A program made the translations under genes and the position numbers. Below, piece after piece: positions 16,941-64,000 of a stretch of DNA of 64,000 nt. Each line of letters opens with the position of its first letter. Position 1 is the first letter of the stretch. A model generated the notes under the pieces. The model saw only the letters and a list, made by a program, of their open reading frames with translations. It searched no databases and was not told the DNA's origin. The stretch lies in contig CM000152.2 in the NCBI GenBank assembly GCA_000004695.1, positions 4,320,001 to 4,384,000 of the forward strand. Direction: 5' to 3'. The stretch comes from Dictyostelium discoideum (lineage: Eukaryota).

Positions 16941-16983
<43 letters not shown>

Positions 16984-17297
16984 AAAAATATTTTTAACAC
17001 CTTTTGAAAATAAAATTAAAAAAAATAAAAATAAAAATAAAATAAATTAAAAGTATATGATGAATTACAGGAACTCATTGTTTGTACAAAAAAAAAAAAA
17101 AACCTCAAAAAGATAAAACTTGTTGTTGTTGTCATTTAATTTTATTTTATTTATTTTTTTTTATTTTTTTTTTATTTTTTTTTTTTTTTAAATTAAGACA
17201 TGTTTGAATTTTTAATTTACTTTATTTTTTTTTTTTTGTGAAATTTATTGAAACTTTTAATTTTTTTTTTCTTTTTTGGGATTATTATTTTAAGGAA

Positions 17298-17330
<33 letters not shown>

Positions 17331-17680
17331 TTTTGAGAGCAGAGAATTTAAAAAGAACGGAATACCATTCCTTTACTAAAGTTTTGAGGCAACTCCATTT
17401 AAATATCTAAGAATCGTTCTCTGTTCCTTTCTCACAAAATTTTTTTTTTAAAAAAAAAAAATAAAAATAAAAATAAAAATAAAAAAATAAAAATCTAAAA
17501 AAAAAATGAAAAATGTGAGAACTAGTTTTTTTTTTTTTCTTCAGAATTTTTTTTTTTTTTTTTTTTAAATTCTAACGTTATAACCACACTTTAAAGCAGT
17601 GATTTTATTTATTTATTTTTTTTTTTATTATTATTATCATTATTATTATTATTTTTTTTTGTAATAATACCAATTGAAAA

Positions 17681-18432
17681 ATGTCCGAGGTTATTTTAGG
17701 AACTGAAATAATTGGAAAGAATGGAATTAAATTATTTACAAGATTAATAGATACCAATGATACAGATAAGATTGTTGAAATTGTTAATTGGGCATATCGT
17801 GGTAAAGATGGTACAAATCCTTGGGCCACTGAAAAAGATTTAGTAACTGTAAGTTTTATATTATTAAAAATTAATAATTTATTTATTTTCTATTTTTAAA
17901 AAAAAAACTAGTACTAATAAAAAAAAAAAAAAAAAAAAAGGGATTTAGAGTTACACCAGAAATGTTACATTCAGATTTAAATACAGACAATAAATTAATG
18001 AAATTAATGTTAATTGAACATATAATTGAAGATAATATTGATGGTGCATCAGAAGCATCAGAAGCTACAACCACCACTACAAATACTGTATCAGCAGATC
18101 AAAAAAGATTAATTATTGGATGCGTTAAAATTGAAAGAGAATCATTGGAATCAAAAGAAGCAGTTATTGGTATGTTAAGTGTTGACCCAAGTTATCAATC
18201 GAGTGGTATTGGTTCAATTTTAGTTAGATTAGCAGAAGGAGAAATAATAAAAACTTTCAATGTTTTTGAATCACATTTGCACGTTGTAAACGTACGTGAT
18301 ACTTTAATTGCATGGTACAATAAATTAGGATACATAACTACTGAAACAACTTTTCCATTTGATGTTGATAGTAATGTTGCATTAAAACAAATTCACTTTG
18401 TATTATTAGTAAAAAATTTATTAAAAAAATAA
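17681..18432 (+). CDS. GNAT-family N-acetyltransferase, 2 exons
   Basis: Exon 1 is 17681-17848 (MSEVILGTEIIGKNG...KDLVT, donor ACT|GTAAGT). The intron ends at ..aaaaag at 17940 and exon 2 is 17941-18432. The acetyl-CoA-binding motif AVIGMLSVDPSYQSSGIGSILV is typical of GNAT motif A. Confidence 0.7.
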
Positions 18433-18669
18433 ATAAATAATAAATATAATATAATTTAATATAATATAACATAATATAATTAAATTAAAGTATGAATAAC
18501 ACTTTATTTATTATACATATATATTTTTTTTTTTTAATAAAAAATTTTTAAAACCAGTTTCAATTTATTTTATTAAACATATTTTCTATTTTCTATTTAT
18601 TTATTTTTTAAAAAAGGAAAACCCAAAAGTTTGATGGGTTTTTGAACTAATATGATATTTAACATTTTT

Positions 18670-19185
18670 TTATAAATCAAAGACTTTTTTATTATCTCTT
18701 TTTTTATTTACTGATATTGATTGTTCTTCATCATCGTTGTTGCTGTTTTTTGACAATTCCAATTTTTTCTTTGGTGGTTGTTTTGGTAAAATGTTTTGAA
18801 TTGGTTTTGATGGAGAGGAAGACGATGATGATGATGATGATGATGAGGAAGGGGTTTTCTTTTTTGTTGAAACTGATAATGATAATTTTGAATGATTGGA
18901 TTTGTTTTTAATTACAACTTTTGTTTCACCATCAGATTCACTTTCATCACTATCTGAACAGGAGCTGGAATCATATTCGGAATCAGCATCATCAGAGTAT
19001 TCTTCCAATTTTCTTTTCTTTTCTGTTTGTTTTGGAATAATGGAGGAGGAGGAATTATTTAATGTTTCAGATTTTAATTGTTCTAATCTCTTTTTTGTTT
19101 TTTCTTTTCCATCACCAACTTTATATTTATCATGACAAACTTTACAAATTGATAAATAGTAATCCAAATCCATTTGCTAATTTAA

Positions 19186-19217
<32 letters not shown>

Positions 19218-19580
19218 TATGAAATAATAAATTATGTTAGTTTTTTATTTTATTTTTTTTTTTTTAAAATTTATTTAATTAATAAATTATACCACCTTGG
19301 TTTCCCAATAATAATTTTTTAATAATTCATTAAATTGAGATTTATTATTGTGATCCTTTTGATCATGATATTTATAAAAAACTTGATTCATTTCATCATG
19401 TGAAATAACAACTCTCTTTTTTTCTTTAATTATCTTGTGTAAAATTGTTTTTTCTTCTTTTTTTGAAATTGAGTAAAGTTTTCTAATATTATTAATTTTT
19501 TTTTTTTCAATATAATTATCTCCAGTTATTTTATTATCTTTTAAAATTTTAATTATGTATTTATATTCTGTGTTATCCAT
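18670..19580 (-). CDS. Small protein with a retroelement-integrase-type HHCC (H2C2) zinc finger and a Ser/Asp/Glu-rich tail (copy A), 2 exons
   Basis: Exon 1 is 19580-19296 (MDNTEYKYIIKILKDN...VFYKYHDQKDHNNKSQFNELLKNYYWETK, donor AAG|GTGGTA). The acceptor is aattag at 19177 and exon 2 is 19176-18670 (QMDLDYYLSICKVCHDKYK... then acidic and serine-rich). The pattern H-x4-H ... YYW.TK ... D.D.Y[LV]..C..C equals the integrase N-terminal zinc-binding motif. Track ORFs 19287-19580 and 18670-19173 are the two exons. Confidence 0.6.
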
Positions 19581-19945
19581 TTTTTTTTTTTATATATATA
19601 AAATAAGATAAAAAAAATAAATAAAAAAAAAAGTAAAAAAAAAAAAAAAAAAAAAAAACCTTATTTTTCAATTTTTTTTTTTTTTTATCCTATAAACAAA
19701 GGTTTACTTTTATTGGAAATCTTACATTGAAGCACTTTTTCAATTTTTTTTTTTATTCCAAAAAAAAAAAAAAAAAAAAAAAAAAACCAAATGTTAATTT
19801 TAAATTATAATAGTTTTTAAAATGTTTAAAATAATTTTTAAAATAGCCTTTTTTAGTTATTTTTAGTGTTTTTACCTGATCCAGACAATTATTTAAAATA
19901 ATCCAATGGTTTATAAAAAATAGAAAGAGGAGGGATAAAAAATTG

Positions 19946-19984
<39 letters not shown>

Positions 19985-20140
19985 GGTAGTAATATTGGAC
20001 TATCTTAAATGAATTTAATTTTATTTTTTTATTTTTGTTTAAAAGAGATAATTATAAAAAAAAAAAACATTTATCCATTTTTGGATAAAGGTAAAAACAT
20101 TTGTTATTTTTATTTTTTTTTTTTTTTTTTTTTTTTTATT

Positions 20141-20405
20141 TTATAAACGAGGTGGTGTATTTAAATTATCATTTTGTTGATCAATTTGCGTTATTTCATT
20201 TATATTTAAACCACTTTTCTTTGCTTCAGCTAATTTACGTAAATAAATTGCATTTTGAGGACCAGTTTCATTTACTAACCATGTTAATAAACCATTTTGA
20301 TTTTGTAATAATGTCCATGGTTCATCAAATTCACTAATTTTACCTGCATCAAGTACCATAATCTTATCACTATCCACTAATTATTTTATTAAATTAAAAA
20401 AAATT

Positions 20406-20473
<68 letters not shown>

Positions 20474-23277
20474 AAAAACAAAAACTTACTAATTGTATTA
20501 AGTCTATGAGCAATTGTTAAAATTGTACAATTACTAAACTTATTACGAATTGTTGCTTGAATTAATGAATCACTTTGACCATCGACAGAAGCAGTTGCTT
20601 CATCTAAAACTAAAATCTTTGGTTTTCTTAATAATGCACGAGCTAATACAATTAATTGTCTTTGTCCAACTGAAAAGTTTTCACCATTTTCTGTTACTTT
20701 GGAATTTAAGCCTTCTTCAGTTGATTTAAATACTTTTGATAATTGAATATCATCTAAAATTGACCATAATTCATGATCTGGACATTCATTGAATGGATCT
20801 AAATTTTCACGAAGTGTACCACTGAATAATACTGGATCTTGTGGAATGATTGCTAAATTTCTACGTAAATCTTTTAATCCGAATTTGGCAATATTTTCAC
20901 CATCAATTGAAATTGAACCTTCTGAAGCTTCAATTAAACGGAACAATGCTAAAACGATTGAACTTTTACCTGCACCAGTACGGCCTACAATACCAATCTT
21001 TTCTTTTGCTTTAATTTCACATGTTATACCTTTTAATACTGGATCTAATCCTTCACGATAACGCATTACTAAATTATCAAATTTAATTGACCCATTTATT
21101 GGCCAATCTGGTGATGGACGACAATCATCAATAATTTGTGGTGCTTCAACTGCTCCTCTAATATATTGTGAAATACGTTCAACTGAATTCATTTTAGTTT
21201 CAGTATCGGCTGCTTGAAGCACACCTTGATTTAAATTACTTGTGATTGAAAGTGCATAACTTAAAACTAGACCAACATCAGATGGACTAATTGTATCCTT
21301 TTTTAAAGTGATGAAAATACATGAAAAGAACACAATAAGGTTACCTAAAAAATCTAAACGTAAACCTAACCATCTATTCATTGCTTGTAGTGTTAAATAA
21401 CAATTATTATTATCATCTAAACGTTTTTGATTCTTTAATATATTCTCTTGTTGTTTTTTATATGCTCTAATTGAAACTACGCCATTTAAAGTTTCAGAGA
21501 AATGATTGAAAATTGGTGAACGTGTAATTGCTTCAATTCTTTGTAAACCTCTTGATGTATATCTATAAAAGTATTGTAAAATAAAGAATAAAATACAAAT
21601 AGGTGCCAATGGAATTAAAAGCCATGGAACAATGATTGAAATTAAAATTAATGTAGCCAATACTGATAGCATTAAAGTGAAGAATTGTGCAATTGAAGTA
21701 GCAATTAAATTATCAATAATATCTAAATCTCTTGTGAAACGATTGATAATTCTACCAAGTGGTGTTTGGTCAAAGAATGACATTGGTTTCTTTAATAATG
21801 CATTGAACAATTCATGATGAATTGAATGAGCTGCACGAACTGCATATTCAAAGAATGAGAATGTACGTACCACAGTCACAATAATCGATGCCATACCAAC
21901 ACCTATGTAAATACCTAAATTTTGATCATCAGTTAAACCAGTAGGTTCTTCACCTAATAATATTGATTCCATTCTTTCTGATGACTCTGTTTGCCAATGT
22001 GATAACCACCAATCTGTAAATGTTTTTGAACCAGTTTCTAATAAAAACAAAATCATTGCAAATAAGAATAATAAACCACCACCAGCTGTAACATATTTCC
22101 AATATACTTTTCCTGCAACAGCTCCTTGTTCCGCTTCTTCCTCTGATATCAATGTTCCATCTTTATCTGATTGTTTAGGTTTTTCAACTTTTTCTTCTTT
22201 TTTATCATCATCTTTCTTATCATCATCATCATCACTATCATCACCTTTTGTATTTTCATCAACACCATATTCTTGTAGTAATGATGCAAATTCTAATTTA
22301 GCATTAATTAATTCATAATAGGTACCTCTTTCAACGATTTCTCCTGATTTTAATACAACTGTATTATCAGCAAATGGTAAATAATTTATTTGATTTGCTA
22401 CTAAAATAACTGTTTTACTTGATAGAATACCTTTAAAACATTTATGGAATAAATGTTTACCAACATGTGAGTCCACTGCTGATAATGGATCATCTAAAAT
22501 ATAAACATCTGCATCTGAATATACTGCACGAGCAATTGAAACTCTTTGTTTTTGACCACCTGAAAGGTTAATACCACGTTCACCAATTTCTACTGAATCA
22601 CCCTGTGGAAATAATTCAATATCACGTTTTAATGCACAAACTTCTAATACTTTTTGATACCTTTCTTCATCCAATTCTTTACCAAAAATAATATTCTCTT
22701 TTAATGTTGCATTGATAATCCATGCTTGTTGAGGTACATAAGCAATTGAGCCTTTAATACCGATTTCTCCATCAATAGTCTCTAACTCTCCCAACATTGC
22801 CTGTACCAATGTCGATTTACCCGATCCGACTGAACCAACAACCATTGTTAATGATTGACCTTTTGCTTCAAAATTAATATTTTTTAAACCAAATGAATCT
22901 TCTTTCTCTTTATTCCAAGTTGTTGTTGAATTTTTCATATAAACACCATTTGGTAATGAAGGATTATCAATTTGTTGAACTTCTTTCATTTCTGGTAATA
23001 ATAGAAAATCAGTAACTCTTTTACTTGCAATTTGCATTTGAATACCCAATGCAATTAAAATTGGTAAGAAACCTAATGGGATTTTCAATAAATTTAAATA
23101 AGAGAGTGCACTAAAAATTTTACCAGCATCCAAACTTCCATTGTATCCATAATAGGTTGAAAATACTAATATTGAAGCTGCTGTTGGAATTGCACCAATC
23201 ATTGCAATTAAAATAGTTCTATAACGAGTGAACGAAAATAATAATTTAATTTCATTATTACGACGATCCAAAACCTA

Positions 23278-23354
<77 letters not shown>

Positions 23355-24573
23355 GAAAATTAAAAATTATTAAAATTAATAAATTAAATCTTTTAATCTT
23401 TAGATTACTTAGTAATAAAAAATATATGTTACCTTTTTAGCAAAACTATCTTCCCATGCATATAATTTTATAATTTTCATTGCTTGTAAAATTTCACTTG
23501 TAACTTTAACACGACCATCTGTATGACCAATTAATATTCTTCTAGTTTCAGTTAATTTCTTTGCAGCTAATCCATTGAATGGAATTGCAGCTAACATTAA
23601 ACCCAATCCTACAAATGTTGGCCAACCAATCTTTTCATATAATAATGCAAGACAAATAATAATTTGTGGTAATGCAAATAAACCATTATTTAAAATTCCA
23701 AATACTTCAATCATTCTTTGAGCATCATTACTAATTAAATTTACAATTTGACCTGGTGATGTATTTGATCTTGCTGAATTTGATAATTTAATTGCTTTTT
23801 TATAAACATCTAAAACAATGATTGATCTTAACTATATATGTATATAATTTTATTAGTTTAATATAATTCTATTTTTTAAAAAATGAAAAAAGGGGGGTAC
23901 TTACACGATCACCAGTTCTAACAGTGACTCTATTGGCTTGATAGTTACAAAATGAACCAATCATTGCAGTTCCAAACATAATCAATGCATAATAGTATCC
24001 CATATTTGGATCTTCTGTTGATGTTCCCAACTTTGATTCAACTACAAATGTAACCATTCTACTTAATATTTCCGGCCCAACAAATTGAGATCCAACATAG
24101 ATTGAATAAAAAAATAAACTTATACAATGTAATTTTCCAAATGCTCTAAATCCAGCCCTTAAATATGATGGTCTAAAAATAATAAAATTAATAAATATAT
24201 TAATATTTATAATAATAATAATAATAATAATATTAATATTAATAATAATAATAATAATAATGAATATTTCAAATAATAAATAAACTTACTTTGGTTTTTG
24301 AATTTCGATTTCCCATGATTTTGCGATTTTTTTGGCTAAATATTCAGATTTATCATATGATGCAAGATCCCAAAGATGTGATAATTGTAAAACATTTCTA
24401 AAACAATGAATTACAAATCCATCAGCCCATGAAAATGTTAAATTTGATAAAAAATTTGAATTTTCTTCTGGTGATTTTTTACCCCCATATCCTATCTTTT
24501 TTTCTTTTTTTTTTATTTCTTTTCCTCCCTTAGTTTCCAAGTTGTCCACTGAATTTAATTCTATATCTTCCAT
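20141..24573 (-). CDS. ABC transporter C-family (MRP-type, short form without TMD0), copy A, 5 exons, about 1325 aa
   Basis: Exons on the minus strand (approx.): 24573-24290, 24171-23904, 23831-23433, 23274-20490, 20376-20141. Exon 1 is [42 protein letters not shown]1 has Walker [10 protein letters not shown] and signature [17 protein letters not shown]2 has GRTGAGKSS and [16 protein letters not shown]. Exon 5 is (M)[19 protein letters not shown]. Intron 4 (20377-20489) is essentially a 66-nt A homopolymer on the transcribed strand. Intron 3 contains an (ATT)n repeat. Confidence 0.85.
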
Positions 24574-33449: not shown

Positions 33450-33523
33450 TGCCTCAGGCCGGGATCGAACCAGCGACCTTAAGATCTTCAGTCTCACGCT
33501 CGTACCAACTGAGCTACTAAGGC
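33450..33523 (-). tRNA. tRNA-Phe (anticodon GAA)
   Basis: The minus strand reads GCCTTAGTAGCTCAGTTGGTACGAGCGTGAGACTGAAGATCTTAAGGTCGCTGGTTCGATCCCGGCCTGAGGCA. It folds into a cloverleaf: acceptor GCCTTAG/CTGAGGC (one T-G pair), D stem GCTC/GAGC, anticodon stem TGAGA/TCTTA with loop CTGAAGA (GAA), T stem GCTGG/CCGGC and T loop TTCGATC. No intron. Confidence 0.9.
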
Positions 33524-50111: not shown

Positions 50112-50426
50112 ATGAATTTCAACAAAAATTCAATTGTATTAGGTACTTTATTACTTAAAGGACCATTGTCAAGACAAAACCTTTGGAGTTATGTTTCAAG
50201 ATTCAATTTTTACTCTGGTTTAACAAACTTAAAAATGCACTTGGATAGAATGGTTAAAGAAAGAAGAATCACCAGAAAAGTATCACCATTATCAAAAACG
50301 AGAGGTCAAGAGATTTTTGAATTTGCAATTATTAAAGAAAATGAAAGAAACAATATTCCAGAAGATACTTTAGATAAAATAAAAACAGAAATCAACGAAT
50401 TTGATAAATTATTTGAAAAAAAATAA
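50112..50426 (+). CDS. Hypothetical small basic protein (104 aa)
   Basis: Intact ORF MNFNKNSIVLGTLLLKGPLSRQNLWSY... with normal coding composition and AT-rich flanks. No recognisable motif. Confidence 0.4.
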   Translation: MNFNKNSIVLGTLLLKGPLSRQNLWSYVSRFNFYSGLTNLKMHLDRMVKERRITRKVSPLSKTRGQEIFEFAIIKENERNNIPEDTLDKIKTEINEFDKLFEKK

Positions 50427-50771
50427 AATAAAATAAATAATAATAATTTAAATAAATAATGAAGCAACACAACAAAAACAAAAATAACAATATAATATAA
50501 TGCAATTAATTACCTATGAATGGAAGTGTATCCATACACTCTTTTTTTTTTTCATCAATAAACATGTACATAAAATAGGTAAAAAAAAAAAAAATAAAAA
50601 AATAAAAAAAAATAAAAAATTATAATTAAAAAAAAAAAAAAAAAAAAAAAAGATATTTGTTTGGGTGATTTAAATATATTGAAAATAACTTTTGAAATGA
50701 TCTACATATGTATTGGGGATATTTCTCTATTTTATGTAAAATTTTTATTTTTATTTTTATTATTATTTTTC

Positions 50772-51007
50772 TTAGGAAAATAATCTCTTTATGGCAAGTG
50801 CCACAAGAAGGGTAAATAAAATTACAATCATTCTATCAATTTGAATGGTGGATGGGTTTAAAATTGTTCTTTGTTGTTGAATTATTGGTTGTTGTTGTAG
50901 TTGTGGTGGTTGTTGTGGGTTTTGTAAAGTAGTTGTTGGTTTTTGTGTGGCGGAGGGTGTTTGAGAATTATTTTGCGCTATATTGTCATTTTTATTGTTA
51001 TTATTGC

Positions 51008-51038
<31 letters not shown>

Positions 51039-51656
51039 ACTATTTTTATTATTTTCAGTGATAACACCAATTGTTGGTGTATTTAATTGTATTGATGCTC
51101 CACTGCCACCAGAAGCACCAATTGAAATATTTTGTGTTGGTAAATTATCAAGTGATTTCATTACCATATCTTCTATTGGTTCATTATCTTCATTATCTTG
51201 TTCATTGTTGTTATTGACTATTTCTTCCTCTTCATAATAAGTTTCTGTATTTTGTTTAGTTTCTTCCTCTTGTAGTTTTTCATTGTAATCTTGATCTTCA
51301 TTTTTAATATCACCACTATCATTATCATTATTATTATTGTTATCATTATTATTATTATTATTAGTAGTAGTAGTAGTATTTGTTGAGGTATTAGTAATAG
51401 CTGTAACTGTGGTTTCTGTTGCTGCTGTTGTTGTTGTAGTTGTTGTTGTAGTGGTGGTTGTATTATTATTATTATTATTACTATTAACTGGTTGACCCAA
51501 AGCAAAACGATTATGTGAACCACATCTTGTACATTTCCAATCTAATGATTTTAATGCTAATTCCTTTCTATCTTTTGTTGGTAAATCAATAGCACCAATT
51601 GCACCTTTTCCTTCTGTTGGCATAAATCCAATTAATGCAACTAAAACTGTTCTAAC

Positions 51657-51692
<36 letters not shown>

Positions 51693-52312
51693 AAAATTAG
51701 ATTTATTAGCATTTTTTTTTTTTTTATTTTAATTATTTGTTTTATAATATTTATATATACATACTACTCCAAGATGGTTGCCAATGTTCTGGATGGTGTG
51801 CTGATACAGTTAAACAAATCTTTACATTGGTTTCAAATCTACCATTTGGCTAAATATATTAATCATATATATGGTTAGTGTTATTTTTAATAGGTGTTGT
51901 CGGTTGTTGTTATTTTTATTGTTAAATACATACTGTCAATAATACAATATTTGGTGGTTTGAATGGATATTCAGATGGTAAAATAATTCTACCATGGTAA
52001 ATACCACCATTAAAATCTGAATCTTGTGGTCCTCTTATTGTAAAATGCCACTCAAATATATTGTCCTACATATAAGATATTATATATATATAATCATTAG
52101 TTTAATATTATAATTTAAATTGTTTATAATTAAAAAAAAAAAAAATAATAAATATATATATATATATTTGTGTATTTATATATATATATATATATATATA
52201 CACATACCTCTAAAGGAAATGCTTTGTAATCTGGATTTGTATCATTTCTAAGTTCTTGTATCTCCCTTAGGATTCTTTTTACTGCTGGGTTATTTGGGTT
52301 ACATGAATCCAT
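50772..52312 (-). CDS. UBC6/UBE2J-type tail-anchored ubiquitin-conjugating enzyme (ERAD E2), 4 exons
   Basis: Exons on the minus strand: 52312-~52196 (MDSCNPNNPAVKRILREIQELRNDTNPDYKAFPLE, donor GTATGT). ~52068-51935 (DNIFEWHFTIRGPQDSDFNGGIYHGRIILPSEYPFKPPNIVLLT). ~51858-51775 (PNGRFETNVKICLTVSAHHPEHWQPSWS, containing the active-site Cys). ~51659-50772 (VRTVLVALIGFMPTEGKGAIGAIDLPTKDRKELALKSLDWKCTRCGS, then poly-N/T, ending in the TM anchor RMIVILFTLLVALAIKRLFS). This aligns with human UBE2J1. Confidence 0.8.
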
Positions 52313-52442
52313 TGAACGTACGTAGTTTATTTTCTCTATTATATAAATAATGCAATACAAATATTTTAATTTAATTTAAAAAAAAAAAAAATAAAAAAAA
52401 AAAAAAATAAAAAAAAAATAAAAAAAAAAATTAATTTTTTTT

Positions 52443-52473
<31 letters not shown>

Positions 52474-52874
52474 CAAGAAATAAAGGGAAAACAAAATTTA
52501 AAATATCTGAGACATATGTTTTTTTTCTTTTTTTTTTTATTTTTCATTTTTTTTATTTTTGGAAATAATTTGACTTTTTTTATAAACACAATTAAAATAA
52601 GTAATTTTCAATAAAAATAAAAAAAATAAAAAAAAATTTATTTACAAAGCCTCTTTTATAGTAATATATTTTATTTATAATTAATAATTTTTTGATTTTT
52701 TTATTTGTTTCCATAATTTACAAATATTTTAAAATTATTATTTACAAATTTGTTAAGAGAGAAAAATATATATATTTTTGTTTTGAAAAGTGGTAATATT
52801 ATTTTTTTTTTATTTTATTTTATTTTATTTTTACTTTTTTTTATTTTCCGGAAAAAAAAAATGGAAAAAAATAA

Positions 52875-53751
52875 TTAAATTAAAAAATTAGTAAATTTTG
52901 AAGAATATTGAAAAAGAAATGAATCTCTATCAGTTATTGAATCAAAATTATTACAACGAAGATCTAATGATTTAGTGACGCGATTATTAATACAAGCATT
53001 GATTATTAAATGAAGTGAAGAAGTATTTAAAAAGTTTTTTGCAAAATTTATAGTATGAAGATATTTTGAAGTTGAGATATAGTAAATTATGATATCCATA
53101 TCATCATTTTCAATCTCATTATTTGAAAAATTTATAATTGTAATTTTATTTGATTTTACAATTGATTCTAAAAGTTTTGAAAGTTTATAACTGTTCAATT
53201 TTGATTTCCTATGAATGTACTCTTTCAAACCATCAGAATTCTTTGATTCAAAGAAATCACAAAGTGAATCTATTGAAATTTTGGAATTTATTGCATTGCA
53301 TGATAGATTTAAAACTCGGATATGTTGATTCACAGTTAGTATTTGAATGATTGTGTTCACTCGTTCTGGTGATAATAAAGAATTTGAGAATTCAATTCTA
53401 AGTAATCTCAAAGTTGAGCATTTCATTAAATACGGTACTAAATAGCAAAATCCCAATGGATCCAATCCGAATCTTAAATAAATTGCTTGACATCTATTAA
53501 TTGATTGATAATGATTACGCGGTGTTAACCAACGACCAATGATCCTACAATAATTCAAATCACTATCCCTTTCATATAAAAACTTATAAGAATAATATAA
53601 ATGTCTTATACTTTTTATTGATAATTTATTCCATAATCTACAAACCATTGAAATTTGAAAAAAACTATTACTTGGAAATACAATATCACATGCAAATCCA
53701 ATTATTTTAATTATTAAATATTCCGGTAAAATTTTATTAAATGATTTCTTT

Positions 53752-53783
<32 letters not shown>

Positions 53784-54176
53784 TACATTTTTTATTGTAG
53801 TTGATGGTGTTGATATTGGTAAAGAAATTGATGAAGATGATGATGATAATGAAGAAATTGATTGTATAGAATTTGATCTTGATAAACTATTATTATTATT
53901 ATTATTATTATTTTGTATTTGTGACGATGATGATTTTTTATTTTTAAATTTTTTTATTTTTTTTAATGGAGATTTTAGGTTTTTCTTTTTTGAAACTTTA
54001 CAATTTACCGAATTTGGTGATGGAATTAGATTATTATTTTTATCTAATTTTATTAAATTATTTAAATAAATATTTGATGATAATGATTTTTGTTGTTTTG
54101 GTGTTAATTCAAAAATTCCACCTGATGATATCATTTGATTTGTTTTTAATTGTGATGATGATGATGAGTTTCCCAT
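52875..54176 (-). CDS. F-box / leucine-rich-repeat protein with an N-myristoylation motif (MGNSSSS)
   Basis: A single 433-aa ORF. The N-terminus is MGNSSSSSQ. The F-box-like motif is LPEYLIIKIIGFACD. Then come repeated L..L.L..N.I.. units (VLNLSCNAINSKISIDSL, INFSNNEIENDDMDII, SLDLRCNNFDSITD). Confidence 0.6.
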
Positions 54177-54904
54177 TTTTTTTATTATTATTATTTTTAT
54201 TATTATTATTTTTATTATTATTATTATTATTATTTAGGGTTAAATTTTTTTCAATCTGTTTTTTTTTGATGGTTAATTTTTTTTAATCTGTTTTGATTTT
54301 TTTTTAATCTGTTTTGATTTTTTATTTTTTATTTTTATTTTTTTTTTTTATTTTTACTTTTTTTTTTTTTTTTCAATCTTTTTTCAGAATCTGAGACAAA
54401 ATATCTTTTTTTTTTTTGATTTTTTTTTTTTTTTGATTTTTTATTTTTTTTTTTAATATTATGGTTTTTAAAAGGGTTTTAAAATTATTTTAAACCAACC
54501 ACTGAAAAAAATTAATTGGAATAGAAATAGAAATATATTAATATAGTACAAATAATATAATGTTTTTAAATTAATGAATGGGTAATGAGAAATGAATTCT
54601 GATTTGTTTTTTTTTTTTTTTTTTCTATCAATTTTAATTTTAATTTTTATTTATTTTTTTTTGTTTTTTTTTTTTTTATTTTTTTTTATCAATAAAAAAA
54701 AAAAAAAAAAATGGCCAAACCACTGAGATTCAATCAGCAAACCATTTGATTGGTCAATTTTACAACTCTCAAAAAAAATCTCCTCGCAAAAGTCTTTTTG
54801 GCAACTCGTCAGATAGTTCCATGAAATTAGAAAAATCACATTGATTGGCTTTTCCAAAATGCGATAAATTTTTTGTAAAATTGAAAAAAGAAAAAAAAAA
54901 AATA

Positions 54905-54954
<50 letters not shown>

Positions 54955-56037
54955 AAAATAAAAATATACAGTTTAACAAATCAGAATCAATTTTTGTGTG
55001 AGTGTGTGTTTGATCGGATTAATATATAATTTTTTAATTTATTTTATTTTATTTTATTTTTTTTTGTTTTTTATTTTTATTTTTATTTTTTTATTTTTTT
55101 TATTTTTTTTATTATTTTTTTTTTTTTTAAATTAAATTAAATTAAAAAAATGATAATAATAAAATTATTGTTTAAATTTAATATGAAAAATATCAACATG
55201 TTGATATGATATGTTATAGTGTATCAAAAATAGTAATTTAGATTAATCTATAAAAATTAATAATATCCATATTTATATATTTTTGTATATAATAAAATTT
55301 ATTTAATTTATTTATATGTACTGTTCAAAAAATTTTTTAATTTTTTTATTTTTTATTTTTTTTTTTAAAATTTTTTTTTTATTTTTTTTTTAAAATTTTT
55401 TTTTTTTTTTATTATTTTTTTTTTTTTATTTTTTTATTTTTTTATTTTTTATTTTTATTTTTTTTTTTTAAGGGCAATACAAACACGATAAATAAATTAA
55501 ATAAACCAACCCCCAAAATTAAAAATCAAATACTCACTCAATAATCCATATTTAATTATTTATATACCCAAATAAAGAAAATTTTGTTTATTTATATATC
55601 ATCATATATATATTTATATTTAAACATTTTAATTATTTATAAAATTATATAAAAAATAAAATAAAAAAAAAATAAATTATAATAGTAATAATATTTTTTA
55701 TTATTATTATTTTTTTTTTTTTAGTGTATTATATATATAAATATATTAGTTAAAATAGAAATAGGATTATATTTATACCAATAACTATAGTTTTTCATTA
55801 ATTTATATATTCTATCCCGATTTTGTATTTATACATGTATTTCCTTATATACACTTAAAATTCAGACATTATTATTTATTATATATAAAAAAAAATTAAA
55901 AAAAAAAAAAAAATTAAAAATAAATAAAATTTAAAAAAATAAAAAAAAAAAAAATAAAAAAAATTTGTATATATATTAGAAAAAAAAAAAAAAAATAAAA
56001 AAAAACAAAAACACAAATAAAAAAATAATAAAAGAAA

Positions 56038-56706
56038 ATGAAGAGGTTCTTTTCGAATCTCTTTAAGAGAAAACAAGACCAGAATAGTCATATTAAACAA
56101 ATAAATGGGCCAACAACATCAACTCCTACAACAACTCCTACAACTCCTACAACTCCTACAACAACTCAAACACCAACGCCACAAAATAATAATACAAATA
56201 ATAATACAAATAATAACAACAATACAAATAGTAATAATAGTAACCAACAAAAGAAAGAACAAGCACAAGCATCACCATCAACTAATCAAACACAAACACC
56301 ATCTAATAATACAATATCAACATCTCCAACTGTTACAACACAACCAAGTTTCACACCAGGTGTTATAAGTACATCAAAACTTACAACATCACCACCAGAA
56401 AGTCCAAGACCACCAACTTCAACAACTAATACTACACAACCATCAACCACTACAACCACAGCTACTAATAGTACCAATACAAACACAGCATCAGCACCAA
56501 CTAAAACAGCATCTCCAAGCTCACCAAGTGCAACAGCTTCACCAAATAATAATAGTAATAATACAACTACTACTGCTGCAACTACTACAACTACTACAAC
56601 TACTACAACCACTACAAATGCAAATCAAACAGCAAGTGTTAATCACACTAGCAGTGACCAATCATTAAATGCTCAAAATGTAACACAAACAAATAATAAC
56701 AACAAC

Positions 56707-56737
<31 letters not shown>

Positions 56738-58565
56738 CAAATAATACAAAACCAATTAATCCAAATGATTATATTCCATTGGATTTTGTGGATTCTACAC
56801 CAAAAGTTGATAACAATCAACCAAAAAGAAAAGCAAGTGGACCACCAGAAATTTTACCAGAAGAAATTGATAGAACTGATTTCCTTGGTCAAGGTTCATT
56901 TGGTTCTGTATACAAAGGAAAATGTCGTGGTCAAGAAGTAGCAGTTAAAATTCCAAGAAAACAAAAACTTAGTTTATATGAATTAACTAGTTTTAGACAT
57001 GAAGTTAAAATTATGAGGTAAGGGTTTATTATATATAAAAAAAAAAAAAAAAAAAAAGACCATTTTTTTATTAATTCTTTTTTTTATTTTTATTTTATTT
57101 TTAAAAATCAATTAGTAAAATCTTCCATCCAAATGTAGTATTGTTTTTAGGTGCTTGTACACAATCAGGTAAAATGCAAATTGTTACAGAACTTTGTCAA
57201 ACAGATTTAGAAAAGTTATTACATAATGATCGTACCAAAAAGGAGTTTAGTTTATTTAGAAGAATGCAAATGGCTAAAGATGCAGCATTAGGTATGAATT
57301 GGTTACATGGTATTACTAGAATTGTTCATAACGATTTAAAAACAGCAAATCTCTTGGTAGATATTAACTTGCGTGTTAAAGTAACTGATTTTGGTTTCAG
57401 TCAAATTAAAGAAGGTGAAGAATTTCAAGATAAAGCAGCAAAAGGAACTCGTAAGTTTTAAAAAAAATTTTTTTTTTTTTTAATAATAATCATTTTTTGA
57501 TATTAACTATAATTTTTTTATTTTTTTATTTTAAAAATAAAAAGCATTATGGATGGCACCAGAAGTTATGATGGGTAATCCATATAATGAAAAAGCAGAT
57601 GTCTATAGTTTTGGTATTATTTTATGGGAAATTTTAACAAAGGAAGCACCATATTCACATCATAAAGATTACGATATTTTCTTTAATGCAATTTGTAACG
57701 AGAAAGAGAGACCACCAATTCCAGCAGATACACTTCCAAGTTTACGTCATTTAATTCAAACATGTTGGGATCATAATCCACAAAATAGACCATCATTTAG
57801 CGAAATCTTATTCAGATTGAATGAGATTTTAATCGATTGTGCAATCGATTTCGACGATGGAAGAAAGTATTGGAAAGAACATTTCTTAGTACCAAAACAA
57901 GAATTACAAGAGGAGGTTGAATGGTCAGACTTTGAAAAAACTTTGAAAGCCACTCACAAACAATTAAATCTCGATTATGCTCCACTCAAAGAGTTACTCG
58001 TTCAACAATCTCATCAAACTGTTCAAAAAACTAAACAAGTTGTCACTATGGAAAGATTTGATAAAGTTAGTAAATGGTTTGGTTCTTTCTTTGAACCAAA
58101 TACTGGTATTGAAACTATTGATAATGTATGTTTTCTTTTTTTTATTTTTTTTTTTTTTTTATATAAATATTTTATTAATATTGGTTTCTTTTTTTTTTTT
58201 TTTTTTTAAAAAAATAATAAAAATAGATTAATAAATTATCAGCAAAAATTTGGTTCCATGGTGATATTGTAAGAGAACAAGCAACATCTAGATTATCAAA
58301 AGCAGCTGAAGGAGCATTTTTAATTAGATTATCATCAACCGAACCAAAGACATGTCCTTTCACATTGTCAATGAAAAATAATCAACACCGTAGAATTCAA
58401 TTGATCGATGAAAATAATTTTACAGGTTTTAAGATTCAAGGAAAGACAGCAGTTTACAATAGTTTAATAGAATTGGTCGAAAAATGTAATGACTATCCAT
58501 TATTAGTACCTTGTCCAAAATTCACACAAGAAACTTTTAATCCTTATGATCCTTATACAAATTAA
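56038..58565 (+). CDS. shkD: SH2-domain-containing TKL protein kinase (shk family), 744 aa, 4 exons; the length fits ShkD
   Basis: Exons: 56038-57017 (T/N/P/S-rich N-terminus then GQGSFGSVYKGKCRGQEVAVKI...EVKIM, donor AG|GTAAGG). 57116-57450 (SKIFHPNVVLFLGACTQ...IVHNDLKTANLLVD...VTDFGFSQ.., donor C|GTAAGT). 57545-58125 (PLWMAPEVMMGNPYNEKADVYSFGIILWEIL...). 58227-58565 (INKLSAKIWFHGDIVREQATSRLSKAAEGAFLIRLSSTEPKTCPFTLSMK..., an SH2 domain). Kinase plus C-terminal SH2 is the Dictyostelium Shk architecture. The specific paralog name is recalled from protein length only. Confidence 0.8.
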
Positions 58566-58870
58566 AATAATAATAATAAAAATAATATTTATAAAAAATA
58601 ACAACAATAACAATAATAATAAAATAATAATAATAATAATAATCAACATTAAAAAAAAAATTGTAATACCACATTTTTATTTTAATCAATCAAAAAAATA
58701 TTTGTTTTTTTTTGAATCCACTGACCAACAATAATAAAAAAAAAAAAAAAAAAAAAAGAAAAAATTTTTAAAAAAGAAATAAAAAAAATAAAAAACAAAT
58801 AAAAATAATAAAAAAAATTAATATATAATTAATAATATTATAAAAGAAAATTATGTGCATTTGATTTTTC

Positions 58871-58907
<37 letters not shown>

Positions 58908-59228
58908 TAGTAAAAGATAATTTGTCCAGCTGGCTTTTTTTGAATTTTCGATAATTACTGTCTTTTGACCAAGGCTTCCAAAAATATATTTTCTCATTTT
59001 TTTGAGATATCCATATAATTTTTTTAATATAAAATGATGGAGAAAAAAAAATTAAAATATTGACTGAATAAAATAAATAAAATAAATAAATATATAAAAT
59101 AAAATAAAATAGAATAAATATATATAAAATAAACATAAAATAAAAATTAAAATAAAATAAAATAAAATAATAAAATAAAATAAATTAATAAATAAAATAA
59201 ATTAATAAATAAAATAAAATAAATAAAA

Positions 59229-59569
59229 ATGGGATTTTCAGAATTAAAAACTAAAACTACATTTAAATTTGACTTTTTTGATAATTTCTTTGATAAAGAA
59301 AAAAGAGAATTTTTAAGAGAATGGACAAAGAAAATTCAAGAGGCATTTAAAATTTTCATTCAAAAATTAAAACTAACTTCTAAATGGGTAGATGAAAATA
59401 TTGTGAAACCAATTTTACTAAAACTTACAGAGTTATGGCAATGTTCATATGCAATGATTCAAACATCAACAGTTTCCAGACATGAATATTTTGAATTACA
59501 ACAAGAATTCAATAAAGAGGCTGAAAACTTATTAAAAAGATTTGAAGAAAAATTAGAAGAAAAGCAAAG

Positions 59570-59615
<46 letters not shown>

Positions 59616-59825
59616 AAACAAAAACATAACAAACAACAAAAACAACAACCACAACCTCAACAACAACAACCACAACAACAAGAACAACAAGAACTACAAG
59701 AAATGCAACCACAATATTCAAATCATTACAAAGATGAATCCAGACCGGAAGATTATTATCAACAAGATCAAGAACAATATTATAAACAAGAACCTCAACA
59801 ACAATCAAATAAAAAACTTGACTAA
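59229..59825 (+). CDS. Hypothetical Q-rich coiled-coil protein (198 aa)
   Basis: Intact ORF MGFSELKTKTTFKFDFFDNFFDKEKREFLREWTKK... with a C-terminal (CAA)n poly-Q. No family assignment. Confidence 0.4.
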
Positions 59826-60249
59826 AAAAATTATTTTAAAAAAAAAAAAAGAATAAAATTCCTAAAATGTTTAAATTTAAATTTTAACTTCAAGAATTAT
59901 TTTTTTAAAAAAATGAAAATAAAATCTAAGGTTGGCCAGATCTAAAAATTTCATAACTATTTATGAAAAGTAATTTTATGCTAACCTGGTGGCCTGTTTT
60001 TTTTTTATTTTATTTTTTATTTTCTGTATTGCCCCTTATTAAAAAGTTAAGGACTACATTTTTTAAAAAACTTTTTGGAGAGCTGGATTTTTTTTTATTT
60101 TTTTTTTTAAGTGTTGATTTTATAATTTTATTTGAAAAATAATCAAAAAAAAAATCTTTTTTTTTAATTTTTAACAAACCAAATAGATTTCTTTTTTTTT
60201 TTCCTTTTTTTTTTTTTTTCCTTTTTTTTTTTTTTTCTATTCTCTTTTA

Positions 60250-60301
<52 letters not shown>

Positions 60302-60469
60302 TTTTCATTGATATTCAATATATAAAATATTCATTGAGTAAAAATAATTTGTTATTTGTTAATAATGTTTCAAAACAAAATATCTTTGGTAAATAATATT
60401 TTTTATCTGAAATATAATATATAAAATATTTTAATTATCTCTAAAAAAAAAAAAAAAAAAAAAAAAAAT

Positions 60470-62990
60470 GTTTATAGGTCGTGATGGATCAAAAGGACAT
60501 GATGAAATGGTATTAATGGTAAAAAAGGTGTCGATGGTAAATATACAATACAAATATTTGATTATGAGGGTGTTAAATTTAATAGTTCACCATATGATTT
60601 AATGGTGGAAGAGATTGGATAAATTGATAGAATAGGTTATAACGTAATTGAACCAGATTCAGATGTAACTTTAATGGTAAAGCATAAAAATGTGGGAGGA
60701 ATGCCAACACCATCATACCAAAATATTATGACATACGTCGATGATAATAAATGGGTATTCTGTGATCCAGTTAATAGAGTTGCATTTGATAAGTCAATTT
60801 TACAGGGTGCAGCTTCAAGAAATAAAAGAAATGAATTTAAAATCACAGATTTTAAACAAAATCCAAAATCATTACCAAGAGATCCATTTATGGTTAACGC
60901 AACAATGGACCATCAATGTTTAGTTGACCGTATCAATCAAAGCTTCAAGACAATTTCAGATAAGAAATCAAATTTTATTATTGAGTATCCAATTCAAACT
61001 TCATTAATTAAAGGTTTAAATAGTATTATATTAGGTGATGAATCACCATTTGTATTTAGAATGGGTTATATTCACATGTCGAAATGATTGGACCATCGGA
61101 ATTAAAATTCTTTTCAGGTACAATTTCATTTATAAACCCAAATATAAAACCATATACAAGAATTTTATTAGAATCAACCATATATTTAGGCCATGTTAAT
61201 AATATGATGTCTCCATTACCAATTCAATCAAGACCATTTGAAATTCAATTATCAGAGTGTTATTTACCAAAATCTATATTTCAATGTGATCTATTACTGG
61301 TTGTAAATAATCAAAGTGATTATAATGAAATTAAAAGTTGGAGAAAATTAGCAAAAAGTTTAAAGTTAAAACTAAATATTTGGAATACTAGTCTTTATAG
61401 AGCTTTTAATTTATCTCATGTTAAAATGGATGGAAAATCATTATTGGAAGATTTTCGTGGTAAAACTATATTTTTTTATATAATAGTTTTTAAAAGATGA
61501 ACTATTAACTCCACACGCTAATTTGATTAGACCTGATGAATTTTTTAATGCAGCCTACAATCATGGAATAAAGGTTTTAATCATTGGTAAAAGTTATTCA
61601 ATTGAAAGGGAAATTTCACCAATAAATACATTAGAGAAATCAACTACAGAGGCTTAATATCTAGATGATGATCATTTCTTTAAAACAATGAAATATCAAA
61701 TTCCAAATGGTTTAGGCACTGGTATTTCATTACCACCAATATTTGCAAACACTTTAAATGGTGATTTGGCAATTAATGCAATTGTAAATGGAAAAGAAAA
61801 TAATTGGATTGTAATTTTCAATGGGTATTATTTATTATCAATTTATAAAGAATCAATTTCATTATATCCACGTAAATCAATGGATTTAAATACAAACTTT
61901 GTACTTAGGAAAATTGATGAAAAAATCGATAGTGTTTCATTCCAATTATCAATTCCTCATTTAAACTTTGTTATTAACTTTTCAAAGTTGTTGGTAAAAA
62001 ACCAATTAAAATTTTAAATTTAAAGAGATTTTCATTGACAAGAGGTAATCAATTTGGTAATGAAAAATCAAGTCATGAACAGTGTTTTCAATTAGTTACA
62101 CCAGAAGTAACATGGTTTTTTAAATCTCAAGATCATTTTGAATGGGTTAGTAGATTATCACCTGAATATCAAACTTATTCTCAACCATCATCTTTGATTA
62201 AAGATCAAGTAATATTAGGTAAAGTTGATTCAAGAGGTGTTCATTTAAATGATGAATCTCCAATTATTGAAACTAGAACCATTCCAACCATCCAAGTAGT
62301 AGGTAGATATATTTTCACTAAACCAACCATTGATGACTTAGATAAGAAGTAGAAAAACAAGAAGAACGAGAAGTAGTAGATCAAGAAGATCAAGAAAAGC
62401 AAGAAGAAGAACAAGAAGAAGAAGAACGAGAAGTAGAAGAAAACCAAGTAGAAAAAGAAGAAGAAGAACAAGAAGAAGAAGAAACAATTCTTGAATCTCC
62501 AGAACCAATTGTTGATCATGAAAATCATTTGAATGGTTAGATCCTTTACCATTACCAATTCAATTGCAACAACAACAACAAGTTTATCAACCTCAAAGAA
62601 TTCAATTCAATTAAAGGAAACAAAAGATTTCGAAGATTCTTTACAATCAGAAAAACAAGAAGATTAATCATCATTATACCAATTTCGATTACAATTAGAT
62701 TCACCAAAAAGTTTAAAACAATTACTTGAAGACGAACCTGAAAACCAAAAAGAGGATAGTTTTTCAGAGGGTATCAATCAACAGCAATCAAATGACCATT
62801 TTCGATTAGATCAACAATTAATTAAAAATGAACAAAAAGAAAACCAAGATACCTTCTATGATCAACACTCCAATTAAATCAACAACCAACTCTAGAAGAA
62901 TTAAACCAATTGGATGAATCATTAAAACAAGAAGAAACAATCCAATTTGAGAAATCAATGGAACAATCCAAATAAAAGAAAATAAATAAA
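60470..62990 (+). pseudogene. Chain of co-linear same-strand ORFs in shifting frames: a probable decayed gene (pseudogene) of an unknown Dictyostelium-specific family
   Basis: Coding-like composition runs across 60.47-62.99 kb, broken into ORFs in frames 2/1/2/1 (60674-61087, 61084-61500, 61688-62017, 62035-62352) that abut or overlap (ATGTCGAAATGA at 61076-61087). Further ORF fragments without a Met lie in between (LLTPHANLIRPDEFFNAAYNHGIKVLIIGKSYSIEREISPINTLEKSTTEA). After 62345 comes an E-rich segment and more stop-interrupted frames. No splice signals could rescue the frame changes. Confidence 0.5.
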
Positions 62991-63384
62991 ACTAAAATTA
63001 ATCCTAAAAACCATTTATTTAATAATCCATTTCCTTATTTTTTATTTTTTTATTTTTTATTTATACATTAAACACTCCAAAATTAATGGTACAAGTAAAT
63101 AGAATAGTAAGACAAAAAAAAAAAAATAAAGAAATAAAAAAAGTATTTTTTTTTTTTTTTTTTTAATAAAGTAATAATATATTGTTTGTTAATAGTAAAA
63201 AAAGTATATTATTATTAATTTATGTTTTTTTTTTTTTTTTTAGTTTTAGTGTAGTTGAAAAAGGTTATTTGTTGCAATTTGGTTTGGTTTGTTGTGTTTG
63301 TTTGTTTTAATATATAAAAAAGTTACTTGTTTGATTTTTTGTTTGTTTGATTTTTTTTTTTTTTTTTTTTTCTTTAAAATTTTA

Positions 63385-64000
<616 letters not shown>

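Follow-up and report, generated by a model that had tools for sequence, protein, structure and literature searches.

A probable non-processed pseudogene of a DUF7932 and PH-domain protein family on Dictyostelium discoideum chromosome 3

Background

Documented pseudogenes of Dictyostelium discoideum include racK and 26 tgr pseudogenes (PMC3188802, PMC12745789). Here we describe a broken gene on chromosome 3, at positions 60468-62975 of a 64-kb stretch of DNA (hereafter the window, to which all coordinates refer unless a contig is named). It derives from a protein family that is recognisable though uncharacterised, and whose members combine a Gly-rich N-terminus, a DUF7932 domain, a flavodoxin-like domain, a PH insert and a helical C-terminus. 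Intact relatives, 1270-1773 aa long, are spread across Amoebozoa. Annotated there as "PH domain-containing protein", they include D. purpureum DICPUDRAFT_97676, D. firmibasis RB653_010307, D. citrinum ACTFIU_008740, P. violaceum CYY_004230 and T. lacteum DLAC_05177. In a family member from Planoprotostelium we observed a fusion with a kinase.

The family is also found in Myxococcota, Planctomycetota (Rubripirellula K227x_63720) and Tetrahymena (TTHERM_00320360), as proteins of about 1000-1150 aa. No conserved gene neighbourhood was found for these bacterial and ciliate proteins, and the only matches of an AlphaFold model of this type (pLDDT 92) are generic Ig/macroglobulin-like sandwiches and a receiver/flavodoxin-like fold. 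We found no literature on DUF7932, on the gene identifiers of the locus or on the SRA runs behind the Logan assemblies used below.

Structure of the locus and its intact counterpart

Stop-to-stop mapping confirmed what the first-pass annotation, made from the letters alone, had described: a collinear chain of plus-strand ORFs in alternating frames. Its ATG-to-stop ORFs are 44, 137, 138 and 109 aa long. The open segments are as follows (frame f is the position modulo 3).

60468-60509, plus strand: open segment, f0
60506-60619, plus strand: open segment, f2, closed by TAA
60623-61084, plus strand: open segment, f2
61060-61497, plus strand: open segment, f1
61487-61654, plus strand: open segment, f2, closed by TAA
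61658-62014, plus strand: open segment, f2
61978-62349, plus strand: open segment, f1
62346-62537, plus strand: open segment, f0
62668-62874, plus strand: open segment, f1
62862-62972, plus strand: open segment, f0

The coding-like composition reported for the chain also held up. The GC1-GC3 asymmetry (codon-position GC) changes frame where the open segments change, and over its alignable parts the remnant is 88-91% identical in DNA, and 85% in conceptual translation, to an intact orthologue. We attribute this coding-like composition of the surviving pieces to the recency of the decay.

The orthologue lies on a contig (L007; GCA_054859235.1) of the cryptic sister lineage "D. cf. discoideum", where a 1923-aa gene occupies 17392-23583. 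Its last exon is an uninterrupted ORF of 1704 codons, and its introns measure 68-182 nt with a GC of 0.04-0.12. The contig aligns to window positions 50378-59866 upstream and 62980-63633 downstream at 81-87% DNA identity, and the 1923-aa gene sits between these syntenic flanks. In both neighbourhoods a gene of 744/750 aa and a Gln-rich gene of 198/181 aa lie upstream, and a Rab-type GTPase follows downstream on the minus strand. The sister-lineage gene is tandemly duplicated together with the Rab-like gene (its twin is ACTFIZ_002652, P0078), whereas the window copy is single, and no other paralogue was found in the 64-kb window. The tandem duplication may have changed the rate of the sister-lineage gene itself. 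In tblastn and blastn the remnant aligns collinearly with the intact sister-lineage ORF, P0076 and P0078. Base-level alignment of the window to L007 yields the following catalogue, from 5' to 3'.

60098..60178, plus strand: upstream intergenic anchor, matching about 480-560 nt upstream of the orthologue start codon (L007 16833-16912; 86% identity, E 2.5e-22, blastn)
60442..60477, plus strand: 5' deletion junction, an A-run, then ATGTTTATAG, the 3' end of the last ancestral 5' intron; aligned to L007 18459-18472 (AAATGTTAATAG then GATTTCCAGGATC) and to an A-run at L007 about 17160-17193
60478..60619, plus strand: first surviving coding stretch (GRDGSKGHD / NGINGKKGVDGKY...EEIG)
60505, plus strand: 4-nt deletion, shifting f0 to f2
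60620..60622, plus strand: nonsense codon TAA, TAT (Tyr) in the orthologue
60623..61062, plus strand: DUF7932 beta-sandwich remnant (Pfam match about 60626-60988)
60820, plus strand: in-frame 3-nt deletion within the DUF7932 remnant
61058..61062, plus strand: 203-nt deletion junction (L007 19071-19273) with short microhomology, shifting f2 to f1
61060..61474, plus strand: last part of the second beta-sandwich, then the first half of the flavodoxin-like domain; 92% aa identity with the orthologue
61475 and 61491, plus strand: two separate 1-nt deletions, net shift f1 to f2
61487..61654, plus strand: rest of the flavodoxin-like domain
61655..61657, plus strand: second nonsense codon TAA, TAT in the orthologue
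61658..61986, plus strand: Amoebozoa-specific linker upstream of the PH domain
61984..61986, plus strand: 235-nt deletion junction (L007 20205-20439) with AAA microhomology, shifting f2 to f1
61987..62340, plus strand: C-terminal half of the PH domain and linker, 87% aa identity to the orthologue
62163 and 62171, plus strand: in-frame 9-nt and 3-nt deletions in the PH/linker stretch
62341..62352, plus strand: left edge of an about 2.07-kb deletion (L007 20809 to about 22880)
62350-62352, plus strand: TAG stop
62346..62490, plus strand: Glu-rich (GAA)n tract, remnant of the orthologue's roughly 1.2-kb Gln/Glu-rich repeat
62491..62975, plus strand: decayed C-terminal tail, readable in three frames, with numerous 1-7-nt indels, ending near the ancestral stop codon

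At the 5' end, 60468-60477 preserves the 3' end of the last 5' intron, and what looks like a start codon at 60468 belongs to that intron. A poly-A or other retroposition signature is absent. All 5' exons, which encoded about 220 aa of the Gly-rich N-terminus, are missing: the N-terminal 231 aa of P0078 leave no tblastn trace anywhere in the window, and the nearly invariant Gly columns and the ATRYSSG motif are absent from the remnant.

The first-pass annotation had recognised no family in these peptides. In the repaired translation, we detected DUF7932 (PF25560) above the Pfam gathering score of 27 bits (28.5 bits, E 2.2e-6), in a domain broken by the TAA at 60620. Using the exact window ORF 60623-61084 as the query of an exhaustive HMMER search for relatives, we obtained the best match in D. 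purpureum (residues 287-433, 61% identity over the DUF7932 domain, phmmer). NCBIfam and PADLOC gave no matches, and neither the single sequence nor a family profile found anything significant among PDB sequences. Pfam did not find the PH domain in the repaired translation, though it does in intact relatives, and the position of PH in the remnant is inferred from those matches.

About 68 codons from the second beta-sandwich were lost with the 203-nt deletion, and the first half of the PH domain with the 235-nt deletion. The overlap ATGTCGAAATGA is present at 61076-61087, just downstream of the former; this junction (61060-61087), originally quoted as a +/-1 shift, is in fact the 203-nt deletion. 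The idea that all junctions are bridged by +/-1 frameshifts holds for some of them: small frameshifts are found at the 4-nt deletion (60505) and the 1-nt deletions (61475 and 61491), and not at the 203-nt and 235-nt deletions or the two TAT-to-TAA changes. The decay thus goes far beyond a run of such shifts. The about 2.07-kb deletion takes out the whole conserved C-terminal domain (RFPNQRN...HRSLD...), for which we found no match downstream of 62340. Its right breakpoint lies inside the repeat, where many equal alignments to L007 22262-23139 keep it from being placed exactly; the GAA-rich tract noted earlier is what survives there. The tail aligns to L007 22881-23600 with 72-82% DNA identity and about 20 gaps, with tblastn matches at 62608-62865 and 62871-62942.

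About 60% of the ancestral coding sequence has been lost at the locus, leaving a remnant of 2.5 kb whose pieces cannot make the ancestral protein. With homology along its length, disabling lesions that are real (see below) and a position at the ancestral locus, 60468-62975 is best read as a non-processed pseudogene, to which we give a probability of about 0.93. The suggestion of a decayed gene and recent pseudogene is thus borne out by the lesions relative to an intact syntenic orthologue. The remnant is an ordinary pseudogene, currently annotated as three small hypothetical genes, and probably gives rise to no product.

Among the top matches we found no intact D. discoideum family member, with members of D. 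firmibasis, D. citrinum and "D. cf. discoideum" present; the same search also missed the 1923-aa sister protein. The proposed comparison with an intact relative was thus answered by the syntenic orthologue and the other dictyostelid homologues, and not by a D. discoideum paralogue. Short matches considered as fragments of such a paralogue were rejected, as they are metagenome, Logan or Tetrahymena sequences.

Alternative explanations

The lesions recur in other sequence data. A separate D. discoideum assembly (GCA_054883475.1) is identical to the window over 60446-63100. The stretch 60447-62043 is also covered, with zero indels, by four Logan assemblies built from different SRA runs, one contig of which occurs in seven samples; this is the read-level check of the junctions that had been called for. 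For 62044-62975, lesion support comes from the one independent assembly. GCA_054883475.1 is probably one of the Nanopore and Illumina de novo assemblies of PMC12745789.

The broken copy could be a null allele of the NC4/AX laboratory lineage, segregating and not fixed in D. discoideum. The near identity of the window and the second assembly would allow this, since the two possibly represent one genotype (AX4 and AX2). Against it, one or two SNPs separate the Logan contigs from AX4, including a T>C at 60716, where the sister lineage shows the same, ancestral base. These contigs thus represent a haplotype other than that of AX4 and nonetheless carry every lesion in the part that they cover. The number and size of the lesions also argue for a long history, and we regard a laboratory-lineage allele as improbable.

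Slightly less probable still is that the locus holds several small bona fide genes whose short proteins were exapted from fragments of the old gene. Window ORFs are exact or near-exact matches to three models annotated in AX4 as hypothetical proteins, each starting with ATG.

60701-61087, plus strand: DDB_G0281373, 128 aa, AX4 hypothetical protein, in the DUF7932 remnant
61204-61500, plus strand: DDB_G0281375, 98 aa, AX4 hypothetical protein
starting at 61688, plus strand: DDB_G0281349, 314 aa, AX4 hypothetical protein

Two of the AX4 models are single-exon and require no "introns". The second assembly has two models at the locus, KAM9950131.1 and KAM9950132.1, in a different arrangement. Across all models there are six distinct "introns" of 32-163 nt, all within sequence derived from ancestral coding sequence and mostly aligned to coding sequence of the orthologue. 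Their splice positions are 60530/60630, 61065/61117, 61460/61496, 61994/62025, 62303/62352 and 62536/62698. Four of the six have a GC of 0.28-0.32, and those of 32 nt and 37 nt a GC of 0.11-0.12. Introns of D. discoideum average 146 nt (Table 1, PMC3188802). It had been stated that no GT..AG intron is available, which is wrong: GT-AG pairs exist at the bridged junctions and were used by the annotators, and they do not make credible introns.

A Ka/Ks of 0.26 between the remnant and the intact orthologue is below 1, as small functional genes would have it; we explain the low value by most divergence having accumulated before inactivation. The background of the family is 0.17 (D. citrinum versus D. 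firmibasis), against which 0.26 is raised yet far from 1. Relaxed constraint is thus only weakly detectable, which fits recent inactivation and is no proof of it. Against separate small genes, the fragments are collinear pieces of one orthologue ORF, and they cut through, not between, the beta-sandwich, flavodoxin-like and PH domains. The 5' exons nearest the promoter are gone, the models of one annotation set do not agree with those of the other, and the multi-exon ones (DDB_G0281349, KAM9950131.1 and KAM9950132.1) require "introns" of 32-53 nt or of coding-like GC. The three AX4 models and the two of the second assembly are prediction artefacts that bridge lesions by spurious mini-introns.

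It is very unlikely that the gene is intact and looks broken through sequencing or assembly error in a region rich in AT and homopolymers, as first allowed for. Three small lesions (60505, 61475 and 61491) do lie in or beside A/T runs. The separate assembly nevertheless matches the remnant along its entire length, and the four short-read-derived contigs, set apart by their SNP, have no indel over 60447-62043, which refutes the error reading for that part; between them, they reproduce every lesion that they cover. Errors would also not explain the missing 203, 235, about 1300 and about 2000 nt, nor two nonsense substitutions.

Programmed ribosomal frameshifting, also raised at first, would here have to be combined with stop-codon readthrough to decode a functional gene, and can be dismissed as the least probable of all. 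Neighbouring ORFs do overlap by a few nucleotides, superficially like a recoding site (e.g., ATGA at 61084-61087), but the ribosome would have to change frame six times or more and read through two or more stops, the orthologue and all relatives use a single frame across the corresponding positions, the supposed sites are deletion junctions, and whole conserved domains are gone.

Discussion

The pseudogene reading suggests the following history. An ancestral gene of about 6.2 kb and about 1,900 codons would have consisted of several short 5' exons and then a single long one, encoding a Gly-rich N-terminus, the DUF7932 beta-sandwich, a second beta-sandwich, a flavodoxin-like domain, a PH domain and the conserved C-terminal domain. 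It was probably disabled in the D. discoideum lineage after the split from "D. cf. discoideum". Four large deletions (about 1.3 kb 5', 203 nt, 235 nt and about 2 kb 3') would be one part of the damage; the two internal ones show short microhomology at their junctions, and the two outer ones end in homopolymer or repeat sequence. Small slippage-type deletions in A/T runs and the two TAT>TAA substitutions would have added further damage.

The discoideum-type copies fall outside the clade of D. purpureum, D. citrinum and D. firmibasis (neighbour-joining, bootstrap 100%) and therefore represent an old paralogue or a fast-evolving orthologue. The loci of these three species show no synteny with the window, and the tandem duplication is not polarisable from them. 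We tentatively propose, as a possibility rather than the expected outcome, that the remnant may mark a recent and complete loss of the family from D. discoideum, while the sister lineage duplicated the gene and remodels one copy by an in-frame loss of the PH region. In that case, D. discoideum would be a natural knockout for the family. Speculatively, such birth-and-death turnover, the patchy distribution in bacteria and protists and the Planoprotostelium kinase fusion would fit a conflict-related or environment-sensing role.

For annotation, DDB_G0281373, DDB_G0281375, DDB_G0281349, KAM9950131.1 and KAM9950132.1 should be corrected to fragments of one dead gene and left out of any count of lineage-specific orphan proteins. 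The locus offers a dated, fully resolved example of gene decay in an extremely AT-rich genome, in which microhomology- and homopolymer-associated deletions appear to prevail and a gene that has become 60% smaller still has a coding-like composition. It also brings to attention a large, widely distributed and uncharacterised family with which the model species appears to have dispensed, and this may be why the family was never studied. Tests of its function would need D. purpureum, D. firmibasis or the cryptic sister lineage.

Of the systems compared, the sister-lineage gene is the closest. It has the same domain order as the remnant and is intact, with 5' exons and the 1704-codon ORF, whereas the window copy is without a continuous reading frame. 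The amoebozoan relatives are homologous along all of the surviving remnant (DUF7932, second sandwich, flavodoxin-like domain and half of PH) at 45-57% protein identity; the example genes are intact (1372-1726 aa) and at non-syntenic loci, whereas the remnant is broken. The bacterial and ciliate DUF7932 proteins have the same core architecture (28% identity across about 580 aa) and also match the beginning of the C-terminal domain, but are without the PH insert and much more distant. The racK and tgr pseudogenes are of the same kind as the remnant, being degenerate members of families that vary in copy number between close dictyostelids. They belong to a different family, and the remnant described here is unflagged and split into protein-coding models in the annotation seen.

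Structure and coding signal of the remnant

The remnant at 60468-62975 is a genuine, well-resolved and ordinary pseudogene, the syntenic remains of a large DUF7932/PH-domain gene that annotation has wrongly split into several small ones. When the three plus-strand frames were mapped from stop to stop, a collinear run of open segments emerged, with frame switches at about 60505, 61060, 61480, 61985, 62345, 62540-62670 and 62865, in-frame TAA codons at 60620 and 61655, and ATG ORFs of 44, 137, 138 and 109 aa. Measured in 180-nt windows, the surplus of G+C in first relative to third codon positions peaks in the open frame and shifts along with it, and GC falls from about 0.25-0.33 within the remnant to about 0.12 outside. 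Because the open-frame map and the positional GC signal agree, the chain of same-strand ORFs in alternating frames described in the first-pass annotation is real and not a chance pattern.

Features in and around the remnant
59229-59825: 198-aa ORF with long poly-Gln tracts, directly upstream of the remnant
60701-61087, 61204-61500 and 61688-62877: models DDB_G0281373, DDB_G0281375 and DDB_G0281349 of AX4
61076-61087: dodecamer ATGTCGAAATGA
about 62346-62490: GAA-rich tract
63400-63900, minus strand: gene for a Rab-family GTPase, also conserved in the sister lineage; contains one or more AT-rich introns (about 63540-63652)

Intact orthologue in the sister lineage

The locus L007 of the cryptic sister lineage 'D. 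cf. discoideum' shares its flanking genes with the window, with the Rab-family GTPase gene as the downstream anchor of synteny. DNA alignment identified two tandem family copies in L007, each followed by a Rab-type gene. Copy 2 is the best match of the remnant: three blocks are 88-91% identical, the tail 72-82% and the flanks 81-87%. Annotated as a 1923-aa gene, it comprises short 5' exons, AT-rich introns of 68-182 nt and then an uninterrupted ORF of 1704 codons (L007 18469-23583); programmed frameshifting, once considered for this chain, is excluded since the orthologous exon is this single open frame. The annotated gene for the poly-Gln ORF has 198 aa in the second D. discoideum assembly (GCA_054883475.1) and 181 aa in the sister lineage; the exact sequence of the window ORF is absent from the protein collection searched.

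Lesions relative to copy 2 (base-level comparison)
5' end: about 1.3 kb missing, from the A-run upstream of the orthologue's start codon through the end of the last 5' intron (left edge approximate, falling in low-complexity sequence)
60505: 4-nt deletion
60620: TAT>TAA
60820: in-frame 3-nt deletion
61062: 203-nt deletion, short microhomology at the junction
61475: 1-nt deletion
61491: 1-nt deletion
61655: TAT>TAA
61986: 235-nt deletion, removing the first half of the PH domain
62163 and 62171: in-frame 9-nt and 3-nt deletions
after 62340: deletion of about 2.07 kb, in which the conserved C-terminal domain was lost entirely, along with most of a Gln/Glu-rich repeat
62351-62967: tail with about twenty small indels

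ATGTTTATAG|G at 60468, which looks like a start, is the former 3' splice site, a TAG at 62350 follows the 2.07-kb deletion, and only about 38% of the ancestral codons are still alignable. Junctions bridged by +/-1 shifts, as first proposed, are found at the two 1-nt deletions; other breaks include the 4-, 203- and 235-nt deletions and the TAA codons. The intact syntenic orthologue and this list of lesions bear out the reading of a decayed gene, or recent pseudogene. Judged by sequence, the fragments are unlikely to retain any function.

Sequencing error is excluded as the cause of the breaks, as the second assembly and four Logan assemblies (contigs built from different SRA runs) reproduce those that they cover. 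The Logan contigs, one of which was seen in seven samples, have zero indels relative to the window over 60447-62043, so that the frameshifts are not corrected at the read level there, and their sole differences from it are the SNPs 60716 T>C and, confined to one contig, 60581 A>G. Since the sister lineage also has C at 60716, the Logan reads are not of the AX4 haplotype. GCA_054883475.1, which probably belongs to the Nanopore plus Illumina de novo genome set of PMC12745789, is identical to the window over 60446-63100 and differs only in the length of an upstream A-run and one upstream SNP.

Mis-annotation as small genes

Window ORFs 61084-61497 and 61688-62014 match the three AX4 models exactly or nearly so, and they also match KAM9950131.1 and KAM9950132.1 of the second assembly. 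Several breaks are bridged in these models by GT-AG "introns" of 101, 53, 37, 32, 44/50 and 163 nt, so the earlier statement that no such intron was available was wrong. Its point that splicing cannot rescue the frame stands: the "introns" are short or coding-like, all lie within the descendant of the ancestral coding region, and most of their sequence aligns to orthologue coding sequence. GC is 0.28-0.32 in four of the six distinct ones and 0.11-0.12 in those of 32 and 37 nt, compared with 0.04-0.12 in the genuine introns of the L007 orthologue, none of which is shorter than 68 nt; D. discoideum introns average 146 nt (PMC3188802). The five models are incompatible parsings of one dead gene, and would enter comparative studies as orphan or lineage-specific proteins.

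Elsewhere in the window, ARAGORN detected a single tRNA, and three regions have odd composition for this genome (1-kb windows, GC 0.30-0.44) and strong GC skew (+0.45 to +0.66 or -0.55), overlapping long ORFs.
33450-33523, minus strand: tRNA-Phe (GAA)
3001-5000, 11001-12000 and 14001-15000: odd composition
2929-6969 (minus), 10687-11907 (minus) and 14228-15700 (plus): long ORFs

Timing and relationships

Inactivation postdates the divergence of D. discoideum and the cryptic sister lineage. Comparison with the intact orthologue gave dS 0.25, dN 0.065 and Ka/Ks 0.26 (Nei-Gojobori, 611 aligned codons), and D. citrinum versus D. firmibasis gave Ka/Ks 0.17 in the same region. If the background rate held until inactivation, roughly the final quarter of the D. 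discoideum branch evolved neutrally. This is a rough estimate; L007 carries two copies of the gene, with a Ka/Ks of 0.48 between them that comes from few substitutions.

The duplication (L007 9300-24366 versus window 59710-63633) covers the family gene and the downstream Rab-like gene, with window 59710-59837 matching L007 twice (9300-9425 and 14653-14779). Unit 1 holds P0078 (copy 1) and a 222-aa Rab-like gene, unit 2 the 1923-aa gene and a 206-aa Rab; D. discoideum has only one such unit, reflecting either gain in the sister lineage or loss in D. discoideum. P0078 (L007 11150-14353) retains one open frame of 1067 codons; its alignment to the window skips from the equivalent of 61705 to that of 62154, and the PH-domain region was therefore lost in frame. 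This copy is possibly being remodelled or starting to decay.

Across 445 shared columns, the remnant is 85% identical to copy 2 and 82% to copy 1, but only 52-57% to the proteins of D. citrinum, D. firmibasis and D. purpureum; among these three, identity is 88% between the first two and 75-76% for either of them against D. purpureum. A neighbour-joining tree (810 gap-free columns) placed the discoideum-type copies, at 100% bootstrap, as the sister group of (D. purpureum, (D. citrinum, D. firmibasis)), which contradicts the species tree. The discoideum-type gene is either an old group-4 paralogue or a fast-evolving orthologue pulled to the base of the clade; the loci of the other three species lack synteny with the window.

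Parent family and comparison with bacterial homologues

The family was at first unrecognised; Pfam assigns the repaired translation to DUF7932, with a score exceeding the gathering threshold. When the unaltered window ORF 60623-61084 served as query, exhaustive HMMER search detected 64 relatives, the best being intact proteins of 1270-1773 aa with the matched domain at about residues 285-435, from D. purpureum, Polysphondylium violaceum, Tieghemostelium lacteum, Synstelium, Soliformovum, Planoprotostelium and Stygamoeba. The D. purpureum protein as query added D. firmibasis (1675 aa), D. citrinum (1726 aa) and P0078 (1262 aa), together with several hundred DUF7932 proteins of about 1000-1150 aa from Myxococcota, Planctomycetota and Tetrahymena. 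The intact counterpart of the remnant is the syntenic copy 2 in 'D. cf. discoideum'; no intact member from D. discoideum was among the matches to the D. purpureum query, which also missed the 1923-aa sister-lineage protein. D. discoideum likely has no second copy.

In one amoebozoan member, Planoprotostelium fungivorum PROFUN_12727 (2198 aa), the DUF7932/PH architecture is preceded by a fused protein kinase domain at the N-terminus. As single observations, the D. purpureum member adjoins a PARP-domain and a NADAR-domain gene (15423-16856 of its locus, L009) and a Myxococcales homologue adjoins MukF/MukB-like genes (11986-19330 of its locus, L010); the neighbourhood of a Rubripirellula homologue is unrelated.

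AlphaFold modelling of a Myxococcales homologue from an alignment of 100 sequences gave a confident structure (mean pLDDT 92), with a Gly-rich beta region, tandem beta-sandwiches, an alpha/beta domain and a mixed alpha/beta and helical C-terminal region. Intact amoebozoan members combine DUF7932 with a PH domain at about residues 860-960. The bacterial proteins have no PH insert; what they have in common with the amoebozoan members is the Gly-rich N-terminus, DUF7932 and the domains after it, and the beginning of the C-terminal domain.
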